From an archaeon (GTDB lineage: Archaea > Iainarchaeota > Iainarchaeia > Iainarchaeales > 0-14-0-20-34-12), in assembly GCA_038046645.1 (NCBI GenBank), contig JBBSVU010000006.1, positions 194,078-212,437 on the forward strand: DNA of 18,360 bases, in the 5' to 3' direction. Below, one piece after another: positions 1-17,075 of this stretch. Position numbers and translations under genes: made by a program. Numbering within the stretch: position 1 is the first letter of the stretch; each line of letters opens with the position of its first letter. The notes beneath the pieces are model-generated. The model did not search any database. It saw only the letters and a program-made list of their open reading frames with translations, and was not told the origin of the DNA.

Positions 1-1268
1 GTTTTCTGCTTTTCCTTTGCAGAATTGCAATCCAGCATTTCTTTCATCGAAATTTTAGTTTTTTCGAAATCATCTTTGTCCTTGCAGATGATAGGTTTTC
101 CATAATTCCCGCCTCCGCCTGCAATGTATAAAACATAGCCATTCCTGAATGCTAAGATGTGCTTTGCAATGTCTGCATCAATTTCTGCAATCTGCTCTAT
201 CGGTGAATCAACCAAGATATTTATTTCTGATTTAAACCTTTCAACTAGCCGCATCCACAAGCCCTGGACTTTTTTGCTGTTTGTTTGCTTCACATCTTTT
301 GCAATTGAAATTAATTCCGCCAAAGGAATGCTATGCAAATAAGGAGGCCGTGTTTCTGGATGTATTTCCTCATTAAAATCAGCCAATTCAGAGATTCTAT
401 CCATAACTCCCTTTTTTATCGGACCTTTGCATAATTTACATTTCCAGTTTAAGGCAATTGCCTCTTTTAATGAATATTTTTCCTGGCAGCCTTCGCATGC
501 AGTACAATGGTACTTTCCTTCCCTAGGGTCAACACCGACATTTATTGCAATATGCCTGCCATCTTTTCTCTCAATTACTTTTTTCAATTCAGCAAAATTT
601 GGTTTTTCCATTTTTGCCCTTATGAATTCCCTTCCAAGCCTAACAGGCCAAGGGCTGTGGGAATCTGAACATGTGAGAAATTCATAATTATGGTTTTCCT
701 GAATCAAATCTGCAAAATAAGAATCAGCGCTTAACCCCAATTCAATGAATTTAATCTCAGAAATCATTTTACCATAACATTCCCTGATGGAATTGAAATG
801 TGAATAAACAGAAAAATAAGGAGTAAATGCATGGCTTGGCCCGATTAACCCACCTAATTCAACAATCTTTTCAGCTAATTTCTCTGCACTTATCTTTAAT
901 GTAGGCCTTCCAAAGCCTTTCCCATCTAATCTGCCATATTTTAACAAATAATCCCTCAGCTGATTCACCTTGTCAAAATCCTCCATGAAAAATAAATGGT
1001 GAACATTATTTATGTCATTTATTTCCCCACCCAAAACAAAATAAGTATCAAATTCCTCAACCACAAAGCAATGGTTTTTCTTAATCAATGAATGCTCTGC
1101 ATGCTTAATCCATTCCCCGCAAAGGATATCGCCGGTGCTTAATAATTTCAGGCCTTTCAATCTTGCCTGCTCCGCCAGAATTGGCAGAAGCATGTTTTTG
1201 CTTACTCCGCCGGCATATGGGCTATGTATGTGCAGGTCGCAATCAAATAATTTCAAATGTTCTGGCAT
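1..1268 (-). CDS. endoQ: Endonuclease Q / TIGR00375-family PHP-domain nuclease with Zn finger (3' end outside window)
   Basis: Not in the ORF track because it has no stop in the window. Manual translation from ATG 1268 gives MPEHLKLFDCDLHIHSPYAGGVSKNM...KGLKLLSTGD...HHL...GRP...GPSHAFTPYFS...IELGLSAD...SDSHSPWPVRLGREF...GKYHCTACEGC...CKLC...IKKGVMDRI...RPPYLHSIPL...GGGNYGK...EKQK. The PHP metal ligands and CxxC/CxxC match this family. At least 422 aa. Confidence 0.88.
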   Translation of the reverse strand, partial: MPEHLKLFDCDLHIHSPYAGGVSKNMLLPILAEQARLKGLKLLSTGDILCGEWIKHAEHSLIKKNHCFVVEEFDTYFVLGGEINDINNVHHLFFMEDFDKVNQLRDYLLKYGRLDGKGFGRPTLKISAEKLAEKIVELGGLIGPSHAFTPYFSVYSHFNSIRECYGKMISEIKFIELGLSADSYFADLIQENHNYEFLTCSDSHSPWPVRLGREFIRAKMEKPNFAELKKVIERKDGRHIAINVGVDPREGKYHCTACEGCQEKYSLKEAIALNWKCKLCKGPIKKGVMDRISELADFNEEIHPETRPPYLHSIPLAELISIAKDVKQTNSKKVQGLWMRLVERFKSEINILVDSPIEQIAEIDADIAKHILAFRNGYVLYIAGGGGNYGKPIICKDKDDFEKTKISMKEMLDCNSAKEKQK

Positions 1269-1323
1269 ATTACAATATAGAAACATAAAAGGTATAAAAT
1301 AACATTCCACTTTAATTAAGTTG
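1269..1323. promoter_or_regulatory. Compact divergent archaeal promoter region (endoQ/amrS)
   Basis: 55-bp gap with AAAAGGTATAAAATA near its centre, roughly 25-30 nt from both start codons. No SD motif is visible, consistent with leaderless transcripts. Confidence 0.45.
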
Positions 1324-2723: not shown

Positions 2724-3368
2724 ATGTTTTCCGACAACCAGAAAAAAATAGCGTTGAAATTATTGAGCAATTCACAATCTTTAGATGAATTGGTTGAATC
2801 AACCTCATTTGACAAAAAGATAATCGAAAAGGAATTGAAGGAAATGCTAAAAATGAAATTAGTGAAGAAATCTGAAGACCGCTATTTATTAGAAAATAAA
2901 ATTGCAAATGAATTAAATAAAAGAAAGGCTTTGCAAGAAATAGACCCTTATGAATTAAGGACCCAGGCATTCATAGAAATGCAGGCACTAACAAAGGAAT
3001 TGCTTGAAACCTATTTGGGAAAATTAGAAGAATCCCTAAAAAAAGACAAAAGCATTACAATTTATTCAATCAGCAAGGCCAAGCCAGTAAAGCAAGGCAG
3101 CTATTTCAGTTCATTCATTGATATTAATTTTACAGTAAAGGATTTGGCTGCATTAATCAAATTCATGTTCTTCTATGGCCCTACCTCTGTTGAAGTAATC
3201 AAGCCTGAAAGCTTTGAGATTAAAGCAGATGATTTGCAGGATGCATTAATGACCATAAGCCAGATGACACAGAATTATTCTAATTATATCTTAAAATTGG
3301 TAAAAGAAAAGGAAATTAACGATTTGGACAGAAAGATTGCACAAGGAAAATTAGGGTTTAAGCCTTAG
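2724..3368 (+). CDS. Uncharacterised protein: N-terminal winged-HTH fused to a conserved archaeal alpha/beta domain
   Basis: QKKIALKLL...SLDELVEST...IEKELKEMLKMKLVKK..DRYLL fits a wHTH pattern. The C-terminal FSSFIDINF...FMFFYGPTSVEVIKP resembles a conserved archaeal hypothetical family. Confidence 0.6.
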   Translation: MFSDNQKKIALKLLSNSQSLDELVESTSFDKKIIEKELKEMLKMKLVKKSEDRYLLENKIANELNKRKALQEIDPYELRTQAFIEMQALTKELLETYLGKLEESLKKDKSITIYSISKAKPVKQGSYFSSFIDINFTVKDLAALIKFMFFYGPTSVEVIKPESFEIKADDLQDALMTISQMTQNYSNYILKLVKEKEINDLDRKIAQGKLGFKP

Positions 3369-3574: not shown

Positions 3575-3581
3575 GAGGTGA
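3575..3581 (+). promoter_or_regulatory. Shine-Dalgarno site of the S-layer gene
   Basis: GAGGTGA, 8 nt before ATG 3590. Confidence 0.75.
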
Positions 3582-3589
3582 AACTTTAC

Positions 3590-6500
3590 ATGAAGGTTTT
3601 AAATGTAAAAAGATTGGCTGCAATAGGATTAGGTGCAGCTTTAGTTGGTACAGCTTTGGCTCCAGTAGCTTCAGCATTGACCCTAGATGATAAGTCAACA
3701 TTAGTTGACTCAACTACAGGTAAACCACTGGTTGACGTAGTTGTAGGTGCAAATGCTGCAGTCTCAGACGTAGTCTGGGCAGGAAATATTGCTACAAGGG
3801 TTGCACAGTTGGCCACAATTGATGCAGATGTAACTCCAGAAGTTACAATTGCAGAAGGAACAGGAGAAGAGACAGTTGTTGATCCAGCATTAACAGCATT
3901 CTCATTAGACTTAGTATTGGGAGGCACAACAACCTACGCAACAGGAACAGCAAAGACATACGATGATAACTATCTGACATCAACAAACACACAGCCAGAA
4001 TATAGTAAAGAAATATCAAACTCTACCTTGACTTTCTTAAAAAACGCAACACAGACACAGAAATGGAATAGCACTACATACTCAGAAACAGTTAAGGAAG
4101 TTTTGAATGTAAAGCCAGACTTCAAGTTTGATTACACAAATTACAGCACAGTAGGAGATTTGGTAGGTTATATGACAGCAGTCGGAGACTTTAACTACAC
4201 AGTTACATTCTCACACGGTTTGCCATTGAATGAAACTACCGCACAGCTTTACAGTACTTCAGGTACACAATTCCAGTACGACAAAGCAGAGGATAGTGTT
4301 ATAGTTCCTTTCTTTGGAGACACCTATAAACTTTATAGGGCAGATGCAACCGGTACCTATGTTGATATAAAATTGATTAAGGATTCCGGTGAAGCAACCT
4401 ACTATAAAGGAGATGTAATCCCAGGCTTGAAAGGATCAGGTGCATATGTAGGCAAGGATGTTACTGTTGAAGTTACAAATGTATTCCAGACATCAGCTAC
4501 CTCAGCATATAGTGCTGACTTTGTATTGAAAGATGCAAACGGAAATGTTCTGTCAACAGCTACTTCATTAGCGGCAGGGGTATTCCTTGAAGCTTATTTT
4601 ATGGACGGTAGCGGAAATGCAGCATTAGGAACCTCAGTATATTTAAGTACTGTTGGTGCAAATGTTGAGACAGGAAAAACATTCGTAACAGTAACACAGG
4701 GTACAGATGTACTTGAATTAGTGGATACAAAAGCATATCCCTATGTAAGTACAGATACAGATACATTGGACGATTACTGGATCTTTGACACAGGAACAAT
4801 ATCACAAGGAGCAAGCCCTGATGTAAACGTCATAAAGCAGTTCAGTATCTACAATAATATGAAGAAATGGAATAACTCAACAGGAAATACTCCTTTATGG
4901 GTTGCTGACGACCAGTGTTTAACTACAGCTTGTGTATCAGGATCAAATGAAGCAATTTTCCTGCAAGGTGTTGCTGAAACAACCAAAGGATATAACTTTG
5001 CAAAGATAACCTTTGATGGATTCAAGAAATCAGCTATTGAGTTCAGTACCTTGAAATTAGGTGCAAATTACGTAGATTACTACGATAATTCAGATTTCCA
5101 CCACAAGGTTCCATTCTACATTGCATTGGACACAACATTGACTACACAAGGAAGTTTCCCAATAGACAATCAGACATTCTATTATAGAGTGAATGATGCA
5201 GATGCAAACTTCTCATTAGGTGGAGATAACAATGTTTTGAACGGTGTTACAGTAACATTCATAGATAACAACATTGGATTGCCAAGAACAGATGCATTTA
5301 CTGGTGTAGATGCTAACTATCTTACAGGTACTCCGGGTAGAGTAAATGTAGACTTCAATGGAATTACCTATAGGCAATGTGCATTAGCAAGCACAAATAC
5401 AAGATTACAATGTTTAGCAGATGGTAACTTCCAGATTTCACAGATACAGTTCGCAAACGTAGCAGATTCAGATTTCATAGGGTCAGCTAATTTCAATAAG
5501 TCCTGGTACTATGAAAAAGTAGATGCAGTAGGGGATATGAATAATATCACCACAAAAACCATAGATCTATGGGCAACAGTTCCATTAACAGGTTCACAGA
5601 TGAACAGTAAGACTTTCAAGTATGCCTACTATAGAGCTAACACAGGATATGCCTACGTTTACTTGATGTTAAGTAGACAGACAGACTTCTCACCAGCTCA
5701 AGTGCAGAAATATGCATATGGTTTGCAGTTAAGCGGAACTGACTCAGATTTAGGTGGAGGAACTGTTGAAGATGGTATAGTAGATCAGCCATTCTATGTT
5801 CCAGATTTAGGTGAATCTTGGGCAAGGACTGGTGGAGCAAGCGACTACAATTACTACCTATCAGTGTTCAACTTGAATACCTTCGATGGTTCAGCATCAT
5901 CTACAACTGTTGGTACTGTTGATGCAAATGTATATGTCTTTGCAGATGCATCAGGTAAATTACCAGTACTTCCAAATAACAACTTGTCTACCTACACAGT
6001 TGATGTAGCTTATTTGAACTCAACTTGGACATTATCTAACAGCACAGCAGCTAACTATCTAAAGAAAGGTTACACAGAAGACGGTGCAAAGTTAGATATT
6101 GCAGACAATGTCATGACAATGATATCTCCAGCAAGCAGACTTTACCTGAAGATGTCAGTTGTCGGTTCAGCAGCTACTACCAGTACAACAGGAACTGCAT
6201 GTACCCCAGCAATAACTGCTGATGGCGGTAAGTGTACAACTTCAACAGGTACAGAGATTACCTTAACAAAGTTGACTCCTACAGTCGAGCAGGTAAAGTA
6301 CACCGCAGGTTGCTCAGCTGACCAGTTAGAAGTGGCAAATGTCACAGCTAACCAGGTAGTGCCAGCAGGAGACCTTGTTGTAACTGATGAAGATGTTGTT
6401 GCAGGCGGTAACCACGTTTTAGTAGGTGGTTATTTAGTCAACACATTAGCAAAAGTAGCAACAATCGGTGGAGCTAGCTTGGAAGAAGTGCTAACAGCAG

Positions 6501-6622
6501 ATAACCCAGTCGTTGTTGAAGTAACAGACGACGGTGACTATGTTGTAGCTGGTTATTCAGCAGATGACACAGTCGACGCTGCACAGCAATTCATTGCTGA
6601 GTTAGACAAACTGTTGGAATAA
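3590..6622 (+). CDS. S-layer glycoprotein (Methanococcus/Thermococcus-type S_layer_N and S_layer_C domains), ~1010 aa
   Basis: Signal peptide MKVLNVKRLAAIGLGAALVGTALAPVASA. N-domain VVVGANAAVSDVVWAGNIA. C-domain NHVLVGGYLVN...YVVAGYSADDTVDAAQQFIAEL. Thr/Asp-rich, with about 16 N-x-S/T sequons by manual count. Strong SD and a distinct codon bias (TAC/TTC/AAC/ACA/GCA) suggest high expression. Confidence 0.9.
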   Translation: MKVLNVKRLAAIGLGAALVGTALAPVASALTLDDKSTLVDSTTGKPLVDVVVGANAAVSDVVWAGNIATRVAQLATIDADVTPEVTIAEGTGEETVVDPALTAFSLDLVLGGTTTYATGTAKTYDDNYLTSTNTQPEYSKEISNSTLTFLKNATQTQKWNSTTYSETVKEVLNVKPDFKFDYTNYSTVGDLVGYMTAVGDFNYTVTFSHGLPLNETTAQLYSTSGTQFQYDKAEDSVIVPFFGDTYKLYRADATGTYVDIKLIKDSGEATYYKGDVIPGLKGSGAYVGKDVTVEVTNVFQTSATSAYSADFVLKDANGNVLSTATSLAAGVFLEAYFMDGSGNAALGTSVYLSTVGANVETGKTFVTVTQGTDVLELVDTKAYPYVSTDTDTLDDYWIFDTGTISQGASPDVNVIKQFSIYNNMKKWNNSTGNTPLWVADDQCLTTACVSGSNEAIFLQGVAETTKGYNFAKITFDGFKKSAIEFSTLKLGANYVDYYDNSDFHHKVPFYIALDTTLTTQGSFPIDNQTFYYRVNDADANFSLGGDNNVLNGVTVTFIDNNIGLPRTDAFTGVDANYLTGTPGRVNVDFNGITYRQCALASTNTRLQCLADGNFQISQIQFANVADSDFIGSANFNKSWYYEKVDAVGDMNNITTKTIDLWATVPLTGSQMNSKTFKYAYYRANTGYAYVYLMLSRQTDFSPAQVQKYAYGLQLSGTDSDLGGGTVEDGIVDQPFYVPDLGESWARTGGASDYNYYLSVFNLNTFDGSASSTTVGTVDANVYVFADASGKLPVLPNNNLSTYTVDVAYLNSTWTLSNSTAANYLKKGYTEDGAKLDIADNVMTMISPASRLYLKMSVVGSAATTSTTGTACTPAITADGGKCTTSTGTEITLTKLTPTVEQVKYTAGCSADQLEVANVTANQVVPAGDLVVTDEDVVAGGNHVLVGGYLVNTLAKVATIGGASLEEVLTADNPVVVEVTDDGDYVVAGYSADDTVDAAQQFIAELDKLLE

Positions 6623-6914: not shown

Positions 6915-7535
6915 ATGAAGATAAATTCAAAAATCCTGATTTTTATTGTTTTAATTCTGGTTATCGCAGGCTCTTATTTTTTATTCTTTAATTCTGCAAA
7001 AAGCCAGTATGCTTATACTTGGCAGAACAATACCATCAAATTTAATTCGAATATTTATCAATCATTAAATGATTCTGGTTATATGTCAAAAAAAACCTTC
7101 TTAATATCGCCAGCAATGACCTCTTTTTCATCGCAGCAAAACACCAATTATACAAATGATTTTCTCATACCCTTTCTTGTGGTTTTAAGCGGCAATGACA
7201 AGAATGCTGTTACGTTTATCCGCGTTTATGATGCCAACTCTGATTTGGCTTATTGCTCCACAAATTTTGGAAATGTCAAGGATGAGAAAAAGCTGCCAAA
7301 AGAACAATGTTTGAATATTTTGTCAGATTCTGCTTTAATCAAGATACAACTGGAAAATTTGGATGGCCTGAAACCGCAAAGCGAGGTATTGCTTTCCGAG
7401 GATTCAATTATAATAATCCCAAAAGATATTTCTGATTTGAAAAAGATATTTATCATTATTTCCCAAGATCTTTTCCCAAATTATAAGAATATAATAACTA
7501 ATTCAAATATCCTTTCATCATATGTAATGAAATAA
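6915..7535 (+). CDS. Hypothetical membrane-anchored extracellular protein
   Basis: 206 aa with a basic N-terminus and one hydrophobic helix, then a polar domain with two Cys and several N-x-S/T sequons. Confidence 0.7.
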   Translation: MKINSKILIFIVLILVIAGSYFLFFNSAKSQYAYTWQNNTIKFNSNIYQSLNDSGYMSKKTFLISPAMTSFSSQQNTNYTNDFLIPFLVVLSGNDKNAVTFIRVYDANSDLAYCSTNFGNVKDEKKLPKEQCLNILSDSALIKIQLENLDGLKPQSEVLLSEDSIIIIPKDISDLKKIFIIISQDLFPNYKNIITNSNILSSYVMK

Positions 7536-7550
7536 TTGCTTTCAGGAATT

Positions 7551-8444
7551 ATGGACAAATATTTTCTTTACCTAAAGAGTTCTTTTTCTGCGCTTTTCTT
7601 CCTCATAGCTTTCGCATTTCTCATTTATTTGACCGAGCCTAAAAACTTGTTGGAAATCAAGCCAGATTTATTTCTTATTTCTGTGCTGCTGTATCTCGTA
7701 AGCATTATTATTCTGTCTTTTTTAGAATTTCTCTATTTAGGGAAATCCGCAAAAACAAATTTCGTGGGATACTCTAAAATATATTTTGCAACCATTTTTG
7801 CAGATATTAATGCGCGATTCAGCTCAGAATTCCTTCGGCAGAGAAAATTTGCAGAAGCAGATTTTAGCAAAGTTTCAGGAATAAAAAAAGCATCCCTTGC
7901 AATCCTTTTAATTTCTGCCCTTTGCATTCCACTGTTCCTTATCGCAGGGCTTTTCCTGCACAAATTTTTGATTCTTTTATTATATTTGGCATTTCTGCTT
8001 GTTTTTACCAATGAAAAATTCAATTCTTTATTCTGCACTTTATTTAGTAAATTTCTTGGGATTTTCCATCCAGCTAATTTTTTATTAACCCTGCCCTGCT
8101 TTGGCCCAAAAAAAGAGTTTATTGCATTTCTTATTATTTCGCTCTCTCTATTTTTGGAATTGGCTTCTTTTTATTTTATTTTTAGCTCCCTTAATATGGC
8201 CCTTAACCCCGTTTATTTAGTGTTATTCTTTGCAATTTTCAAAATCGCTGAATCTGTTAACTTTGCAAAAAGAAATATAGGGCTGGCTGAAGGCATAACA
8301 TTTATTTTTCTCTCAAATTTCTTTGCATTAGGCAAAATACCCCCAGTTATTATCCTTTCAATTAGTGCCAGAATCATAATCCCAATTAGCTTATCAATTT
8401 TATGGTTTTTATACTATAAACGAGAAGCAAAATTGCAGGGTTAA
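7551..8444 (+). CDS. Divergent flippase-like membrane protein (LPG_synthase_TM/UPF0104-like)
   Basis: About 8 TM segments. ARFSSEFLR and NIGLAEGITFIFL occupy the positions of the family's P..GE..R and G.G..E motifs. ATG 7551 (AGGA upstream) is preferred over TTG 7536. Confidence 0.55.
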   Translation: MDKYFLYLKSSFSALFFLIAFAFLIYLTEPKNLLEIKPDLFLISVLLYLVSIIILSFLEFLYLGKSAKTNFVGYSKIYFATIFADINARFSSEFLRQRKFAEADFSKVSGIKKASLAILLISALCIPLFLIAGLFLHKFLILLLYLAFLLVFTNEKFNSLFCTLFSKFLGIFHPANFLLTLPCFGPKKEFIAFLIISLSLFLELASFYFIFSSLNMALNPVYLVLFFAIFKIAESVNFAKRNIGLAEGITFIFLSNFFALGKIPPVIILSISARIIIPISLSILWFLYYKREAKLQG

Positions 8445-8447
8445 AAT

Positions 8448-10577
8448 ATGCAAAAAATCCCAATAACTAATCCGAAGGCATTTTTTGTTGGCTGCTTGCT
8501 TGTTTTTTTCCTGATTCTTTTATATTCATTTGGTTATTGGCATTCTTTTTCACAGAAGGAATCTTTTTCAGAGATTTATTTCCAAAAATATGCCAAAGAA
8601 ATAAGCACTGAAGATGCCTGCTTTGCCATCAATGTGCATTCTTTTAACCAAAAAATAGCCGATTCCATGCAAATACAAGTAAATTCCAAGCAGCATAGTT
8701 CCTTGCCAATAAATATTCCTGAAAATGAAGAAATGCAATTGGAAAAATGCCTGCCGAACAGTGCGCTATCTTTAGGGGATAATGTTATTTCTGCTTCTTT
8801 GGGCAATGATTCAATATTTTTCCATGTTTTGAAATCAAAAATTGCAAAAATATCTTATGCCGCTCAATTGCCAAAGAAAAGCACTGCAAATAAAGAACCA
8901 ATTTTTGCAAATCTGCTTTTTTTCATGCTTTTTATGCTCTCCTTTTTCTTTTTTACATATTTATTCTCCAAAAAATTCGGGCTTTTGCACGGCACAATTA
9001 TTTCAATTGCTATTTTTATCATTCAATCCCTATTCAGGATTTTTTTAGATTATTTTGGGATTCTGCAAAATGCTTTTTCACTGTACCTAGTTTATTTTGC
9101 GGCATTTTGCCTGGCTTATTTTTACCTTCCAAGAATTATCCAACCAGAAAAAAAAGATTCAGAAAATGATTTTGACAGAAAAGCATTTATTGCCTCGCTT
9201 ATCCTTGTTTGTTTTTTCATTTTTCTGCAGCTTTTTTCAGTTTCACATTTTTCCGAGTGGAATATCTATTATGAACGGCAGACATCACTTTTCATGGCAG
9301 ATAGCCTTTCTATTTATGACCCTTTGAGCTATTTAGGAAGGCCATTTACCTTTGATCCTGGTTATTTCCTCTTCGAATCAAATATAGCAAAGCTTTCTTC
9401 CCTTTCACAGGATTATCTCTTTGCCGCGAGCGCTTTCTTTGCAATTCTGCTCCTGTTTTTCAGCTCCTTATTCCTTGCCAAATCATTGAAATTCTCATTT
9501 CCCCAAGCAATGCTTTTCTTTATCCTGCTAATCACTTTGAATTTTAATTTTACAAACTTTTTGCTGTCCCCAAGGCACATAATAGCAGTTTCCCTAATGC
9601 TTTATGCATCAGCACTTTTCATCACTGACAAAAAAGCCTGGGTTTGGCTTGGTTTGGTTGCAGGTTCTTTAGCTGCAATCCAAATTCCTGCAGCAATATT
9701 CTTTGCCTTATTTTTATTTGCAATAGGCATTAATTCAAGGAATGATTTGCTAAATAAAAACAACATTTATGCTGCAGTCCTTGCTTTCGCAGTGTTCTTG
9801 TTTGCCTTTGCATCAATATTATTTAAGCATGGGCTGCCTTATACTGCAAAAATGAAGGATTGGGGTTATCTGCTGCATTTGGATAATGGCTGGCTTATGT
9901 TTGACATGAATATTGTCTATTATCTGCTTTTGTTTTTAATTTTGTTAGGCATTTTCTTGTTCAAATCAATGGATTGGGCAGATAGAAAGGTTTATGTTGC
10001 AATGCTGCTTTCCCTACTTTTGGAATTCACCCTGAGTTTTAGGTTTAATATAGTTACACAAGCGCTGTTTGCAATCTTTTTAATAAAATCCATTTTTTAC
10101 ATTCTGCCAAAAAGATACCCAAAAATTTTCTCCCAACCTTTGTTGGGGCTAGCTTTTGCCATTTTGCTCATATTCGCTAGTTATGCAACATTTGAAAATA
10201 TCCAAAAAGAACCTTCACAATTATCAACCTTGCAGGAATTAAGCCCGATGCTTTTTGCATCAAGGCTTCCTGAAGATTCAAACTTTTTGGTTGAGCCGTT
10301 ATACGGCCATTCTTTAGCCTATTTCGGAAAGCAAAAAGTTTTGGCAGATTTATATACTGAATATGCAGATACAAAAAAGCTTGATGCTGAATATGATTTT
10401 CTAGTGAATGGCAATAAAGCAGTGTTAGAAGAATATTCCATAAATTATGTGCTGATTTACAAGGCAGGGGTTCATACAAGTGCTCAGCCCTTTATCCAAT
10501 TCGATGCAAATTTTTCAATCCCTTATCTTTCTAAGGTTTATACTAACGGCCTTTTTGATCTTTATTCCACAGATTGA
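8448..10577 (+). CDS. Multi-pass GT-C-fold glycosyltransferase-like protein (STT3/AglB-like architecture)
   Basis: N-terminal anchor and ~115-aa soluble domain, then many TM helices with loop YDPLSYLGRPFTFDPGYF. The C-terminal soluble domain DSNFLVEPLYGHSLAYFGKQKVLAD...LEEYSINYVLI...KVYTNGLFDLY resembles the STT3 C-terminal core. Confidence 0.6.
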   Translation: MQKIPITNPKAFFVGCLLVFFLILLYSFGYWHSFSQKESFSEIYFQKYAKEISTEDACFAINVHSFNQKIADSMQIQVNSKQHSSLPINIPENEEMQLEKCLPNSALSLGDNVISASLGNDSIFFHVLKSKIAKISYAAQLPKKSTANKEPIFANLLFFMLFMLSFFFFTYLFSKKFGLLHGTIISIAIFIIQSLFRIFLDYFGILQNAFSLYLVYFAAFCLAYFYLPRIIQPEKKDSENDFDRKAFIASLILVCFFIFLQLFSVSHFSEWNIYYERQTSLFMADSLSIYDPLSYLGRPFTFDPGYFLFESNIAKLSSLSQDYLFAASAFFAILLLFFSSLFLAKSLKFSFPQAMLFFILLITLNFNFTNFLLSPRHIIAVSLMLYASALFITDKKAWVWLGLVAGSLAAIQIPAAIFFALFLFAIGINSRNDLLNKNNIYAAVLAFAVFLFAFASILFKHGLPYTAKMKDWGYLLHLDNGWLMFDMNIVYYLLLFLILLGIFLFKSMDWADRKVYVAMLLSLLLEFTLSFRFNIVTQALFAIFLIKSIFYILPKRYPKIFSQPLLGLAFAILLIFASYATFENIQKEPSQLSTLQELSPMLFASRLPEDSNFLVEPLYGHSLAYFGKQKVLADLYTEYADTKKLDAEYDFLVNGNKAVLEEYSINYVLIYKAGVHTSAQPFIQFDANFSIPYLSKVYTNGLFDLYSTD

Positions 10578-14277: not shown

Positions 14278-17019
14278 TTATTTATACCTTAGGATAGCGC
14301 CAATTCCGCCAAATCCGGTTTGGAATTGTTTTCCCTCATCTGTTTCTGTACTTACCATATGTGTTTCTGCATTGCTTTCTGCAGCTTTTTCCATTAGGTA
14401 ATCAGCATAATCCACTTCCTCAATTATTTCCAAGGCAGAACCGCATAACTTGCATTTATAATTCCTTAAATCAGGCTCTTGGTACATTACCTCAGAATAA
14501 TCACAGGCTGTGCATTTCACTTTGTAAATCATCTTCTCTAGGCCCTCACTTATCAAAAGCTTAGAAACCTTTCTTGCTGTTAATGCAGCTTCAACCTCTT
14601 TCTCCCCGTATGTTGCCAAGCCTGTTTTTACAACATTCATCATGAATTCCTGCACTATCTGCTTCTCCCTTATTATATCTGTCTGTTGCAATACGTCATG
14701 GGATTTATCAATAGCTTCCTTTATGCCTGAAGGATCAGTATATCCAACATCAATCTTCCCTATAATTTTATTCTTCAACCTGTGGTCTAATAAGTCAGTT
14801 TCTAAAAAGTAATTTTTGGTAAGCCCTGGCCCCCCAACAATTATCCCCCGTATTTTATCTATCTGGCCAACAAAAGCCTTGTTCATCTCTTCGCTTACCT
14901 TCCTGTAAAAATCATGCTCTGCCTCTTCCCTCAGCCTTTCAAAACGCTGGGCTGAATTATGGACAATTAACCCATTTGCCATGAAATTTCCCATTTTTGT
15001 GGTAATATCTATTGTTTTGGTTTCTTTCCTGATTTTTTGTAATTTAGCTATTTTTACCGGCAAAATAGGGATATTTAAAATATTCTCAAATTTCTTTCTT
15101 AATCCTTTATTGGCTTTCACTTTATTTATTATGGACTTTTTGAATACTGTTTTACCCATTAGCCTTTCATTTCTGAAGAAGTTACTTACTTTTGGGAAGT
15201 CGCAGGTATTATAACCAACATTCTCAAATATTTCCCTAATTTCACTTCCTGGCACAATTATCTGGCGCACATTGCTTTTCATTGTTTTGTTTTTTATGCA
15301 TTTTTTCAATTTTGCGAATTTAATTTTTGAACTGAAGCATATCGTCTTTTTGAATGTTTTTAACGATTCTTTCTCTGTTATATCTAAAGTATAGCGATTA
15401 TTTTTTGAATAGATATTTTTTCTGTTGTCATACTCGTAAACTGAGGCAATAATCCCAAATCTTAGTAAAGCCATTCTAAGATGTTCGATTATCTTTTTAT
15501 TATTCATGCTTATTGATAACCCTCTCTTAGTCACATAGCCCTCTGCATCAAATAATCCCTTTATAAATGAGGCTAAAACTTTGTTTTTAGATTTAAGTAC
15601 CTTTGCTGGAATATTGCTATCTAGCGCTTTTTTTACTTCAGGGAATTCATTTAATATATAATCCGCAATAGGCTTACCATATATTCTAACTTGCCAATAA
15701 TTTTTGCTGTTTCTAAACACAATATTTGTATTTGCGTGGAATAATGTTTTCCCCAATTTTTCATAAATCAATGCTATTTCCCTATTCTGTTCACTAAAAG
15801 CAATTCTTTCTTTTTCAATATTGCCATCACCAATTAAGTAGCCTAAAAATTGTGCAAGTTTTTTATTTAAATATGTTGGCAGTTTTATGTCCGTTTTCTT
15901 TTTACAATATTTCTTCAGGAATGGATCTAGCGGAATTTTTAAAACCGTGCAATAATTTTCCAAATAATCGTCTGAAGGGTCAAATTTTCCCAATTCTAAA
16001 GCTGAGACGCTTGCCTGATGTGCCCCAAGCATTTCACCTAGCTGTTTTTGCGATATTCTTAAAGAATTTCTTTGTTTTGCTAAATGACCTAAACCCTTAG
16101 TGTTTATTTTATAATTGTTGTAATAATGAGTGTTAAGAAGCTGCGTTTTTCCACTGATCTCTATTCTTGCAGGCATTATTAATAAATCGCCCTCCCTTAA
16201 TGAAGATGCGGTTATCTCGGCTATGCCTTCTTCTGCAACTTTAAATAGCGTATGTTCTTCTGAGCAGGTTAAATCTAACTTTGGGTACTTTGTTGTTATC
16301 TGGATTAACTTATTTTTATTGTTCTCCCATTTATTGGTTATTTTGGTATTGCTTAATTCTAGATTATTTAAATTAGCTGCGCAGATTTCTAGAGGGTTAT
16401 GTGCTTCTTGTATTTCAATAATTTCCCCATCACTTAATTGAATTAAAGTTTCAGGATGCAAACATTGCCCACCCGCACGTATTTTACCAGCTACCCTGCT
16501 TTTGAAATTGCCAACAATATCATACCGCTTTCCTTTCAAAACAGCGAAGGTAGCCTCTCTTTTATCCATTGTAACAATCACATAAATATCAGTAGGCTGG
16601 ACCATATTCTTCAATGGAATTAGGTGGAATTCAGAATCACACCAGTACAATTTAGTTTCCAGTTTATTAACAGGCTTTACAGTAAACAATTTTATGTCAA
16701 CCTTTCCGTCATTCGGGCTTACATTTCCGCAAAATATCGCTAACCCGGTATCTGGCAGTTTGAAATTAATCTGCTTAAGCAGATTGATAATTTTTCTTAA
16801 TGCACCCTGCACATTCTTCCTTGTTTTAGGGTCCTTAATATTGCTGCTCTGGCTTACTTCATCACTCAGCTGTTTCATTACTATGGATCTGTCCGTGCCT
16901 GGCGGTATGTAAACAGAAATTAATTCAGTGCCTGATCCTTTAAATGATTCAAGCATCTTTATCTTCTTCTTGAATAATGCTTTCTCCGCATCCATTGCAT
17001 TTAAGTCAAGATGAGCCAT
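14278..17019 (-). CDS. prf1: Peptide chain release factor aRF1 precursor containing an intein
   Basis: GTELISVY, NIKD, YWCDSEF, RAGGQ|intein|SAQRFER, GGPG.TK, YGEKEV, CxxC...CxxC and GFGGIGAILRY. Exteins of 185 + 225 = 410 aa give the expected aRF1 size. ATG 17019 is preferred over TTG 17028. Confidence 0.95.
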   Translation of the reverse strand: MAHLDLNAMDAEKALFKKKIKMLESFKGSGTELISVYIPPGTDRSIVMKQLSDEVSQSSNIKDPKTRKNVQGALRKIINLLKQINFKLPDTGLAIFCGNVSPNDGKVDIKLFTVKPVNKLETKLYWCDSEFHLIPLKNMVQPTDIYVIVTMDKREATFAVLKGKRYDIVGNFKSRVAGKIRAGGQCLHPETLIQLSDGEIIEIQEAHNPLEICAANLNNLELSNTKITNKWENNKNKLIQITTKYPKLDLTCSEEHTLFKVAEEGIAEITASSLREGDLLIMPARIEISGKTQLLNTHYYNNYKINTKGLGHLAKQRNSLRISQKQLGEMLGAHQASVSALELGKFDPSDDYLENYCTVLKIPLDPFLKKYCKKKTDIKLPTYLNKKLAQFLGYLIGDGNIEKERIAFSEQNREIALIYEKLGKTLFHANTNIVFRNSKNYWQVRIYGKPIADYILNEFPEVKKALDSNIPAKVLKSKNKVLASFIKGLFDAEGYVTKRGLSISMNNKKIIEHLRMALLRFGIIASVYEYDNRKNIYSKNNRYTLDITEKESLKTFKKTICFSSKIKFAKLKKCIKNKTMKSNVRQIIVPGSEIREIFENVGYNTCDFPKVSNFFRNERLMGKTVFKKSIINKVKANKGLRKKFENILNIPILPVKIAKLQKIRKETKTIDITTKMGNFMANGLIVHNSAQRFERLREEAEHDFYRKVSEEMNKAFVGQIDKIRGIIVGGPGLTKNYFLETDLLDHRLKNKIIGKIDVGYTDPSGIKEAIDKSHDVLQQTDIIREKQIVQEFMMNVVKTGLATYGEKEVEAALTARKVSKLLISEGLEKMIYKVKCTACDYSEVMYQEPDLRNYKCKLCGSALEIIEEVDYADYLMEKAAESNAETHMVSTETDEGKQFQTGFGGIGAILRYK
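14956..16464 (-). mobile_element. 503-aa intein with LAGLIDADG homing endonuclease and XRE-type HTH
   Basis: Begins CLHPET (TGT at 16464), block B CSEEH, ends GNFMANGLIVHN followed by +1 Ser. LAGLIDADG motifs LGYLIGDG (15823-15846) and FIKGLFDAEG (15538-15567). HTH RNSLRISQKQLGEMLGAHQASVSALELGK lies within 15940-16083. Confidence 0.95.
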
Positions 17020-17075
17020 AAAAATCAATAATTTTCCCCAATCGTATATCTAATAGCAAAGCAAAATCTTTTTAA

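Follow-up and report, generated by a model that had tools for sequence, protein, structure and literature searches.

The stretch of DNA considered here (18,360 nucleotides, referred to below as the window) comes from an archaeon of the order Iainarchaeales (contig JBBSVU010000006.1 of assembly GCA_038046645.1) and encodes, on its minus strand, the class-I release factor aRF1, in which the catalytic GGQ motif is followed directly by an intein. The open reading frame (ORF) runs over 14278..17028 (-) and gives 916 aa if started at TTG; from the ATG at 17019..17017 it gives 913 aa, a form identical to a database protein (P0001). Taken from that ATG, the aRF1 precursor gene occupies 14278..17019 (-), with its stop codon at 14278-14280.

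The insert notwithstanding, the precursor scores 436.6 bits against the NCBIfam model aRF1_eRF1 (TIGR03676, curated cut-off 234.7), and Pfam recognizes eRF1_1, eRF1_2 and eRF1_3 in it. The eRF1_2 match is broken at profile position 41, and within the gap lie Intein_splicing, LAGLIDADG_3, Hom_end and HTH_3, all above cut-offs save the neighbors of Hom_end. Along with a score above the curated cut-off and the N, M and C domains of an aRF1, the 913-aa form has the family's motifs: NIKD at 60, YWCDSEF (YxCxxxF) at 125 and GGQ at 183-185.

The N-extein (16465..17019, -, 185 aa) ends in VAGKIRAGGQ, its last Gln being residue -1 of the intein, and the C-extein (14281..14955, -, 225 aa) begins with SAQRFERL, its first residue being the Ser+1 nucleophile. 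The intein itself (14956..16464, -, 503 aa, CLHPET...IVHN) covers residues 189-691 of the 916-aa frame. With a slash for each junction, the boundaries read VAGKIRAGGQ/CLHPET and GLIVHN/SAQRFER, and excision of the intein from the precursor yields a contiguous aRF1 of 185 + 225 = 410 aa. A first-pass annotation of the window had placed an intein at these positions, directly after GGQ, and had expected a 410-aa aRF1 once 503 aa were removed; its coordinates and junctions are exact, the length it expected for the spliced aRF1 agrees, and the Pfam matches are far beyond chance.

Anatomy and conservation of the intein

Judged from its sequence, the insert belongs to the class-1 inteins in canonical form; it carries a LAGLIDADG endonuclease that looks active and, in addition, an XRE-type helix-turn-helix (HTH). 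The splicing (HINT) domain is in two parts. Its N-terminal part (16117..16464, -, intein residues 1-116) forms strands in the structural model and contains Cys1 and Ser68-Glu-Glu-His71, which we take to be the block B motif, (T/S)xxH; its C-terminal part (14956..15069, -, residues 466-503) contains Asp486 and the terminal His502-Asn503. Between these lie the HTH, matched by Pfam HTH_3 (15907..16116, -, residues 117-186), and then the endonuclease core (15340..15906, -, residues 187-375), which matches LAGLIDADG_3 and has an I-DmoI-like fold. Inside the core are two LAGLIDADG motifs, also on the minus strand: ...LGYLIGDG, ending in Asp213 (15826-15828), and ...GLFDAEG, ending in Glu308 (15541-15543). 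A helical region (15070..15339, -, residues 376-465, with model helices over 380-463) joins the endonuclease to the C-terminal part of HINT; it lies where other archaeal inteins have their “accessory domain” and would presumably have an accessory function.

Profile scores fit this division of the insert: Intein_splicing matches at 54.5 bits (cut-off 35.8), LAGLIDADG_3 at E 1.2e-20, and HTH_3 at 32.8 bits (cut-off 23, E 7.2e-8). An AlphaFold2 model of the intein, built from the alignment of homologues, has pLDDT 95.6 and pTM 0.92. The alignment comprises the window copy and 116 full-length homologues (117 rows), and in all 117 rows Cys1, Ser68, His71, Asp486, Phe494, His502 and Asn503 are invariant; Gln-1 and Ser+1 are present in each of the 116 rows that include extein. 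The endonuclease is similarly constrained: D213 is kept by 116 of the 117 rows, 112 have E308 (another 4 have Asp there), and K254 is present in all 117. The insert thus combines the marks of a class-1 intein (Cys1, SxxH, His-Asn, Ser+1, the HINT fold and an in-frame, excisable insertion) with those of a two-motif monomeric LAGLIDADG enzyme, namely two helices, each ending in an acidic residue, within an endonuclease fold.

The HTH is a discrete module, since 12 of the 117 rows, among them 845-aa proteins, lack exactly that stretch at the same aRF1 site. The model has five helices there (residues 122-186), and a phmmer search gives a weak match between residues 118-186 and C.BclI, a controller protein of the XRE HTH type (2b5a, E 0.005). 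The module and the accessory region are probably DNA-binding.

Relationship to characterized inteins

Comparison of the model with the Protein Data Bank (PDB) by Foldseek ranks archaeal inteins first (TliVMA 7qss, E 1.4e-26; 7qsu; PI-PfuI 1dq3, 2.4e-21; PI-PkoII 2cw7, 6.7e-21; PhoVMA 7qst), followed lower down by PI-SceI and by free-standing LAGLIDADG enzymes, I-DmoI and I-Tsp061I among them; a phmmer search of PDB sequences agrees on archaeal inteins. By structure and sequence alike, the best matches are TliVMA and PhoVMA, inteins of A-ATPase subunit A in Thermococcales (PDB 7QSS, 7QSU and 7QST; PMC8966425), with Foldseek E 1.4e-26, TMt 0.77, phmmer E 4e-15 and identity of about 19%. They share with the aRF1 intein an archaeal host, a plan of HINT, LAGLIDADG and accessory parts, and a seat in the catalytic loop of an essential protein; host and site (GGQ/S) differ.

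A further difference lies in the link from HINT-N to the endonuclease. Archaeal intein accessory domains sit between the endonuclease and HINT-C, and in TliVMA and PhoVMA the link on the other side of the endonuclease is an unstructured loop of 28-32 residues, according to Beyer & Iwai 2022 (PMC8966425). The aRF1 intein, unlike the loop described there, has a 70-residue XRE-type HTH_3 module in this place, an addition best regarded as a minor structural variant. PI-PfuI (from the Pyrococcus furiosus ribonucleotide reductase [RNR], 1DQ3) and PI-PkoII (2CW7) are likewise archaeal homing inteins of full size, and both have additional DNA-binding domains; however, their hosts are other proteins, their accessory domains differ in kind or place, and identity to the aRF1 intein is 15-18%.

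The intein portion of the precursor also matches NCBIfam models that contain inteins, namely PRK14845 (IF-2/aIF5B, E 6e-22), PRK04132 (RFC) and PRK07773 (DnaB), a group to which VMA models also belong. These matches fall far under cut-offs because the intein alone matches, and none is a release-factor model; the match to the IF-2 model does mean that a translation factor is not unprecedented as an intein host.

Related inteins with other hosts were also encountered. One locus (L097, 1-2559), in a metagenome-assembled genome (MAG) labeled Promethearchaeota, has an HTH_3-plus-LAGLIDADG intein in a gene for Topo VI subunit A. Another (L107, 1249-4485) has an intein in a Micrarchaeota gene, with a C-extein that begins SRWATHG; the start of this intein, CLHPDTFIQLSD, resembles the CLHPETLIQLSD of the window, and its host, by its motif, is presumably a GlmS-like protein.

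Release-factor copy number and dependence on splicing

The host genome is represented by an assembly of 1.17 Mb in 25 contigs, 89.2% complete. An eRF1_2 profile search of it returned the two halves of the precursor gene and one further ORF. That ORF, considered as a possible second aRF1, is Pelota (TIGR00111, 254 bits, cut-off 177.65). No second aRF1 was thus found by this search in the 89.2% complete assembly, and therefore all active release factor should require splicing. The first-pass annotation had claimed such a dependence of termination on splicing and had suggested looking for an intein-free second prf1; the assembly offers only Pelota besides the one aRF1, which supports the claim.

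That the interrupted aRF1 is a dead gene, with another factor terminating translation in its stead, is barely credible. The genome is only 89% complete, but the frame of 913 codons stays open, nothing is damaged among the aRF1 motifs or the residues for splicing, the other eRF1-like gene is Pelota, and the same open arrangement is kept in hundreds of lineages.

The host genome also encodes a Gln methyltransferase of the HemK2/Mtq2 family (TIGR00537, 152.6 bits, cut-off 87). In Haloferax volcanii, the GGQ glutamine of aRF1 is methylated by Mtq2 in vivo, and in vitro the enzyme acts on aRF1 only together with a GTP-bound class II factor (PMC6144793). Because the Haloferax enzyme has this need, it is a reasonable inference that methylation of the -1 Gln would follow splicing.

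Dependence on splicing invites the idea, put forward in the first-pass annotation, of a conditional switch, in which redox, salt or temperature would tune the amount of active aRF1 and hence termination and readthrough globally. With a sole aRF1 in the genome, every termination event would feel a slowing of splicing; other archaeal proteins include known hosts of conditional inteins; and the intein has, in addition to Cys1, the cysteines C28, C67, C172 and C187. Against a redox trap, however, residue +1 is Ser, and among the 117 rows Cys1 has no conserved Cys partner near the active site (C67 is found in 42 rows and C28 in 4). Evidence of other kinds bearing on the switch is taken up below.

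Distribution: copies, empty sites and reduced forms

A protein search over 5.8 billion clusters returned 280 cluster matches. The best 120 of these all combine eRF1 domains with an intein and LAGLIDADG, and 119 of those 120 have Cys directly after GGQ; the labels among the same best 120 are Diapherotrites/Iainarchaeum, Aenigmarchaeota, Woesearchaeota and Nanoarchaeota. Some matches carry the JGI name “eRF1/intein/homing endonuclease.” A scan of species-representative genomes gave 157 relatives, from which 79 loci were kept: 67 with GGQ followed by Cys, 7 with GGW or GGM followed by Cys in a full aRF1, 3 cut on the N side and ending in HN/S..RF, and 2 in other hosts. The same aRF1 site is therefore occupied in 77 of the 79. 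Further labels among the loci, given as deposited, are Micrarchaeota, Pacearchaeota, Nanohaloarchaea and two MAGs of Thaumarchaeota/Nitrososphaerales (L088 and L095). In the latter two, a 526-527-aa intein with HTH_3 stands at GGQ/S, and the open frames around it exceed 1250 aa and begin upstream of the locus. Some aRF1 representatives reach 1187-1452 aa (P0309, 1187 aa; P0330, 1452 aa) and may have a second insert.

The first-pass annotation had called for a search of archaeal genomes for insertions at GGQ/S, and at least 280 clusters answer to it. Its suggestion of novelty stands in part: a full-text search of the literature, which reached neither InBase nor supplements to censuses of inteins (either may list the allele), found no natural aRF1 or eRF1 intein, and the word “intein” is absent from the accessible portion of the release-factor survey of Burroughs & Aravind 2019 (PMC6514570). 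As database entries, on the other hand, copies number in the hundreds, and some are already labeled by JGI as intein-bearing eRF1.

Within the order of the host, the distribution is patchy. A survey of 151 genomes, 142 of them aRF1-bearing, found eRF1_2 uninterrupted in 105, in frames of about 410-440 aa, and split at position 41 in 35, mostly in frames of 850-950 aa; the remainder comprises 2 genomes with partial genes, 7 with Pelota-like matches only and 2 with nothing. This puts the intein in 35-37 of the 142. Split genes occur in 14 of the 32 families of the order. Genus g4 is mixed, with 4 carriers of the intein and 3 non-carriers; another genome of the host's genus (G036) has it, and one of the host's family (G004) has an empty site, GKERAGGQ/SAVRF. 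At 13 empty-site loci GK.RAGGQ/S..RF is kept with no gap, and 26-37 of 48 nt match the fused flanks of the host gene. Since TruD adjoins aRF1 in intein-bearing and intein-free genomes alike, the resident aRF1 was invaded, not replaced. For a regulatory switch, absence of the intein from 105 of the 142 aRF1-bearing genomes and variation within a genus are unfavorable; the intein is therefore not a conserved regulatory feature.

Reduced forms are also found in aRF1 of other DPANN archaea. Mini-inteins and HTH-less inteins share the insertion point and HINT termini of the form CL.P(D/E)(S/T)L...NGL(I/V)VHN, with endonuclease or HTH lost, whereas the copy in the window has the full complement of parts. 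A genome of the same order (G025; locus L025, G025:C1:136000-139500, ORF from base 817) has at GGQ/S a mini-intein of about 144 aa, CLVPDS...LVVHN, without endonuclease. Full, HTH-less, mini and empty alleles may represent stages of a homing cycle.

Intein history and host history

Comparison of intein and extein trees, also suggested in the first-pass annotation, revealed conflicting histories. Pairwise identities of extein and intein correlate weakly (Spearman 0.30, 6670 pairs), and pairs can be discordant in either direction, with extein identity of 98% and intein identity of 69% in one case and 57% and 80% in another. In trees built from a subset of the rows, the extein tree recovers 7 of the 30 intein splits supported at 90 or more; in the reverse comparison, the figure is 11 of 32. 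Approximately unbiased (AU) tests on the extein data rejected three of four intein clades (p 0.0008, 1e-8 and 0.023). The intein has thus moved horizontally between aRF1 alleles. Such conflict, as read from these alignments, is typical of homing elements and fits the intact endonuclease; it too speaks against a regulatory switch.

Other inteins of the host and population data

Ten genes of the host's 1.17-Mb genome bear inteins, aRF1 included. The nine other hosts are PolII DP2, RtcB (with a mini-intein), LonB, MetK, RNR, a T2SSE-type ATPase, HerA, MCM and A-ATPase subunit A, and the loci (L130-L138) are distributed over contigs C2, C6, C8, C10, C19, C20 and C23 of the assembly (G000). At the LonB locus (C6:178039-179596), the C-terminal intein match falls in two reading frames with 3 TGA inside it, so this gene may be broken or mis-assembled.

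With ten intein hosts in one genome, the aRF1 intein is one of many and no special device. These nine companions, added to the patchy occurrence, the occurrence of empty, mini and HTH-less alleles, horizontal mobility and lack of a conserved second Cys, tell against the proposed termination/readthrough switch, which we regard as quite improbable.

The stretch is present in 16 DNA runs from six groundwater studies, none of them recorded as RNA. Contigs of four runs (X2, X8, X10 and X11) span the intein and exteins with no differences, and those of X2 bridge both junctions; contig coverage across runs thus confirms the assembly.

These data bear on a reading in which splicing has persisted in the lineage, but cleavage by the endonuclease has been lost and the intein is passed on vertically. 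The same-genus genome G036 is also a carrier, the contigs of the four runs include no empty allele, and PhoVMA offers a natural example of an intein whose endonuclease domain is inactive (PMC8966425). An immobile intein is nonetheless unlikely. The endonuclease core is complete, both acidic residues and the invariant Lys254 included, and is conserved over the 117 rows, whereas loss of activity should bring decay of the kind seen in the G025 mini-intein.

A selfish homing intein as the favored explanation

Most probably, the element is a selfish homing intein seated in the GGQ/S loop of the sole aRF1 and not a regulator of termination. By homology to characterized inteins, the 913-aa precursor would fold, and Cys1 would attack the Gln(-1)-Cys1 peptide bond in an N-S acyl shift; transesterification would then pass the N-extein to Ser+1. 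Cyclization of Asn503, aided by His502, would free the intein, and an O-N shift would complete an aRF1 of the normal 410 aa, with ...AGGQSAQRF... at the joint. No form but the spliced one could place GGQ in the peptidyl-transferase center or be methylated by the Mtq2-type enzyme of the host.

The excised 503-aa intein would act as a site-specific endonuclease, for which the XRE-type HTH and the helical accessory region would probably supply extra DNA contacts. Intein-free aRF1 alleles would be cut at the conserved GGQ-coding sequence, and repair would copy the intein in. The element would thus persist as a selfish one, seated where imprecise loss would be lethal. Patchy distribution and the intein/extein conflict lend indirect support to homing into empty alleles.

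Several points weigh against this explanation. We infer splicing, its speed and constitutive kinetics, and DNA cleavage from characterized relatives. The tree comparison drew on a subset only, 50 of 116 rows; the clades put to the AU tests were picked after inspection of the intein tree, and the fourth was not rejected (p 0.53). At 89% completeness, a second aRF1 could lie outside the assembly. No contig that skips the intein was found in X2, X8, X10 or X11, although contigs cannot show absence; they hold only the strain's intein-bearing allele, and ongoing homing in the population is thus not demonstrated.

Strong conservation of the HTH (e.g., C172 in 100 of 105 rows) would also fit a role that benefits the host. 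It could be imagined that the intein has been co-opted in those DPANN archaea that carry it, with state-dependent splicing setting the level of release factor and thereby controlling termination and readthrough globally; the excised intein, made one-for-one with aRF1 and equipped with a conserved XRE-type HTH, could then double as a DNA-binding regulator. We consider this very improbable.

aRF1 with GGxSQ in place of GGQ

The survey of intein-bearing loci also brought to light release factors in which GGQ itself is altered. In 7 of the 79 loci, all with complete aRF1, the intein is preceded by GGW (L070, L082, L083, L090 and L099) or GGM (L091 and L103), with codons TGG and ATG. Five such genomes were searched: four have no aRF1 other than this GG(W/M) protein, and the fifth has an intein-free second copy, which is also GGM. 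No bacterial-type release-factor domain was found in any of the five GG(W/M) genomes searched.

Among the 120 clusters nearest to the intein-free GGM copy (P0121-P0240), 116 have GGM, 2 GGF, 2 GGW and 0 GGQ. Over the best 150 representatives at 50% identity, the counts are 117 for GGQ, 13 for GGW, 8 for GGM, 3 for GGF, 2 for GGE and 1 for GGS, with 6 unparsed. Ser-Gln comes next after GG(M/W/F) in 132 of 143 proteins, versus 21 of 233 GGQ proteins. Such non-GGQ aRF1, with or without an intein (L109 is a further locus), belong to clades labeled Aenigmatarchaeota and Woesearchaeota.

A GGxSQ pattern is reported for the families aVLRF-1 and acVLRF-1 by Burroughs & Aravind (PMC6514570). Given this pattern, the catalytic Gln of the altered aRF1 may have shifted two residues downstream rather than been lost. 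A full-text search of the literature found no mention of aRF1 without GGQ.

The methyltransferase appears to follow the motif. Mtq2-type proteins (TIGR00537) score above cut-off in 0 of 7 GGxSQ genomes (G151-G155, G166 and G167) and in 8 of 11 GGQ genomes (G000 and G156-G165), the latter being the host, 3 of 5 with Aenigmatarchaeota labels and 4 of 5 with Woesearchaeota labels; the association has a Fisher p of 0.004, a value that ignores relatedness and is drawn from genomes whose completeness is not known. From these profile matches, it looks like the GGQ register and its methyltransferase were lost together. The family of aRF1 inteins, for its part, appears to splice, or at least to persist, whether residue -1 is Gln, Met, Trp or Phe.

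Other features of the window

Elsewhere in the window, a Pfam search at E 1e-5 matched nothing in five ORFs of 206-709 aa, located within 6915-10577 (+), 3-1310 (-) and 2724-3368 (+); three of these adjoin a gene for an S-layer-like protein (3578-6622).

Implications

The aRF1 intein leaves the prevailing view of inteins and of release factors unchanged. It does add a class-I release factor to the hosts of inteins, with insertion at the very residue of peptide release. In carriers, each termination event would hang on prior protein splicing, and the Gln that Mtq2 methylates is residue -1 of the intein. The natural series of full, HTH-less, mini and empty alleles at one site, over several archaeal phyla, should be well suited to study of the homing cycle. 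For intein biology, the modular addition of an XRE-type HTH to a LAGLIDADG enzyme is of interest, as is the prospect of a set of splicing domains that would tolerate Gln, Met, Trp or Phe at -1.

GGQ and its methylation are held to be universal in textbooks. The GGxSQ clades without Mtq2 bear on that universality, and may in the end matter more than the intein itself.

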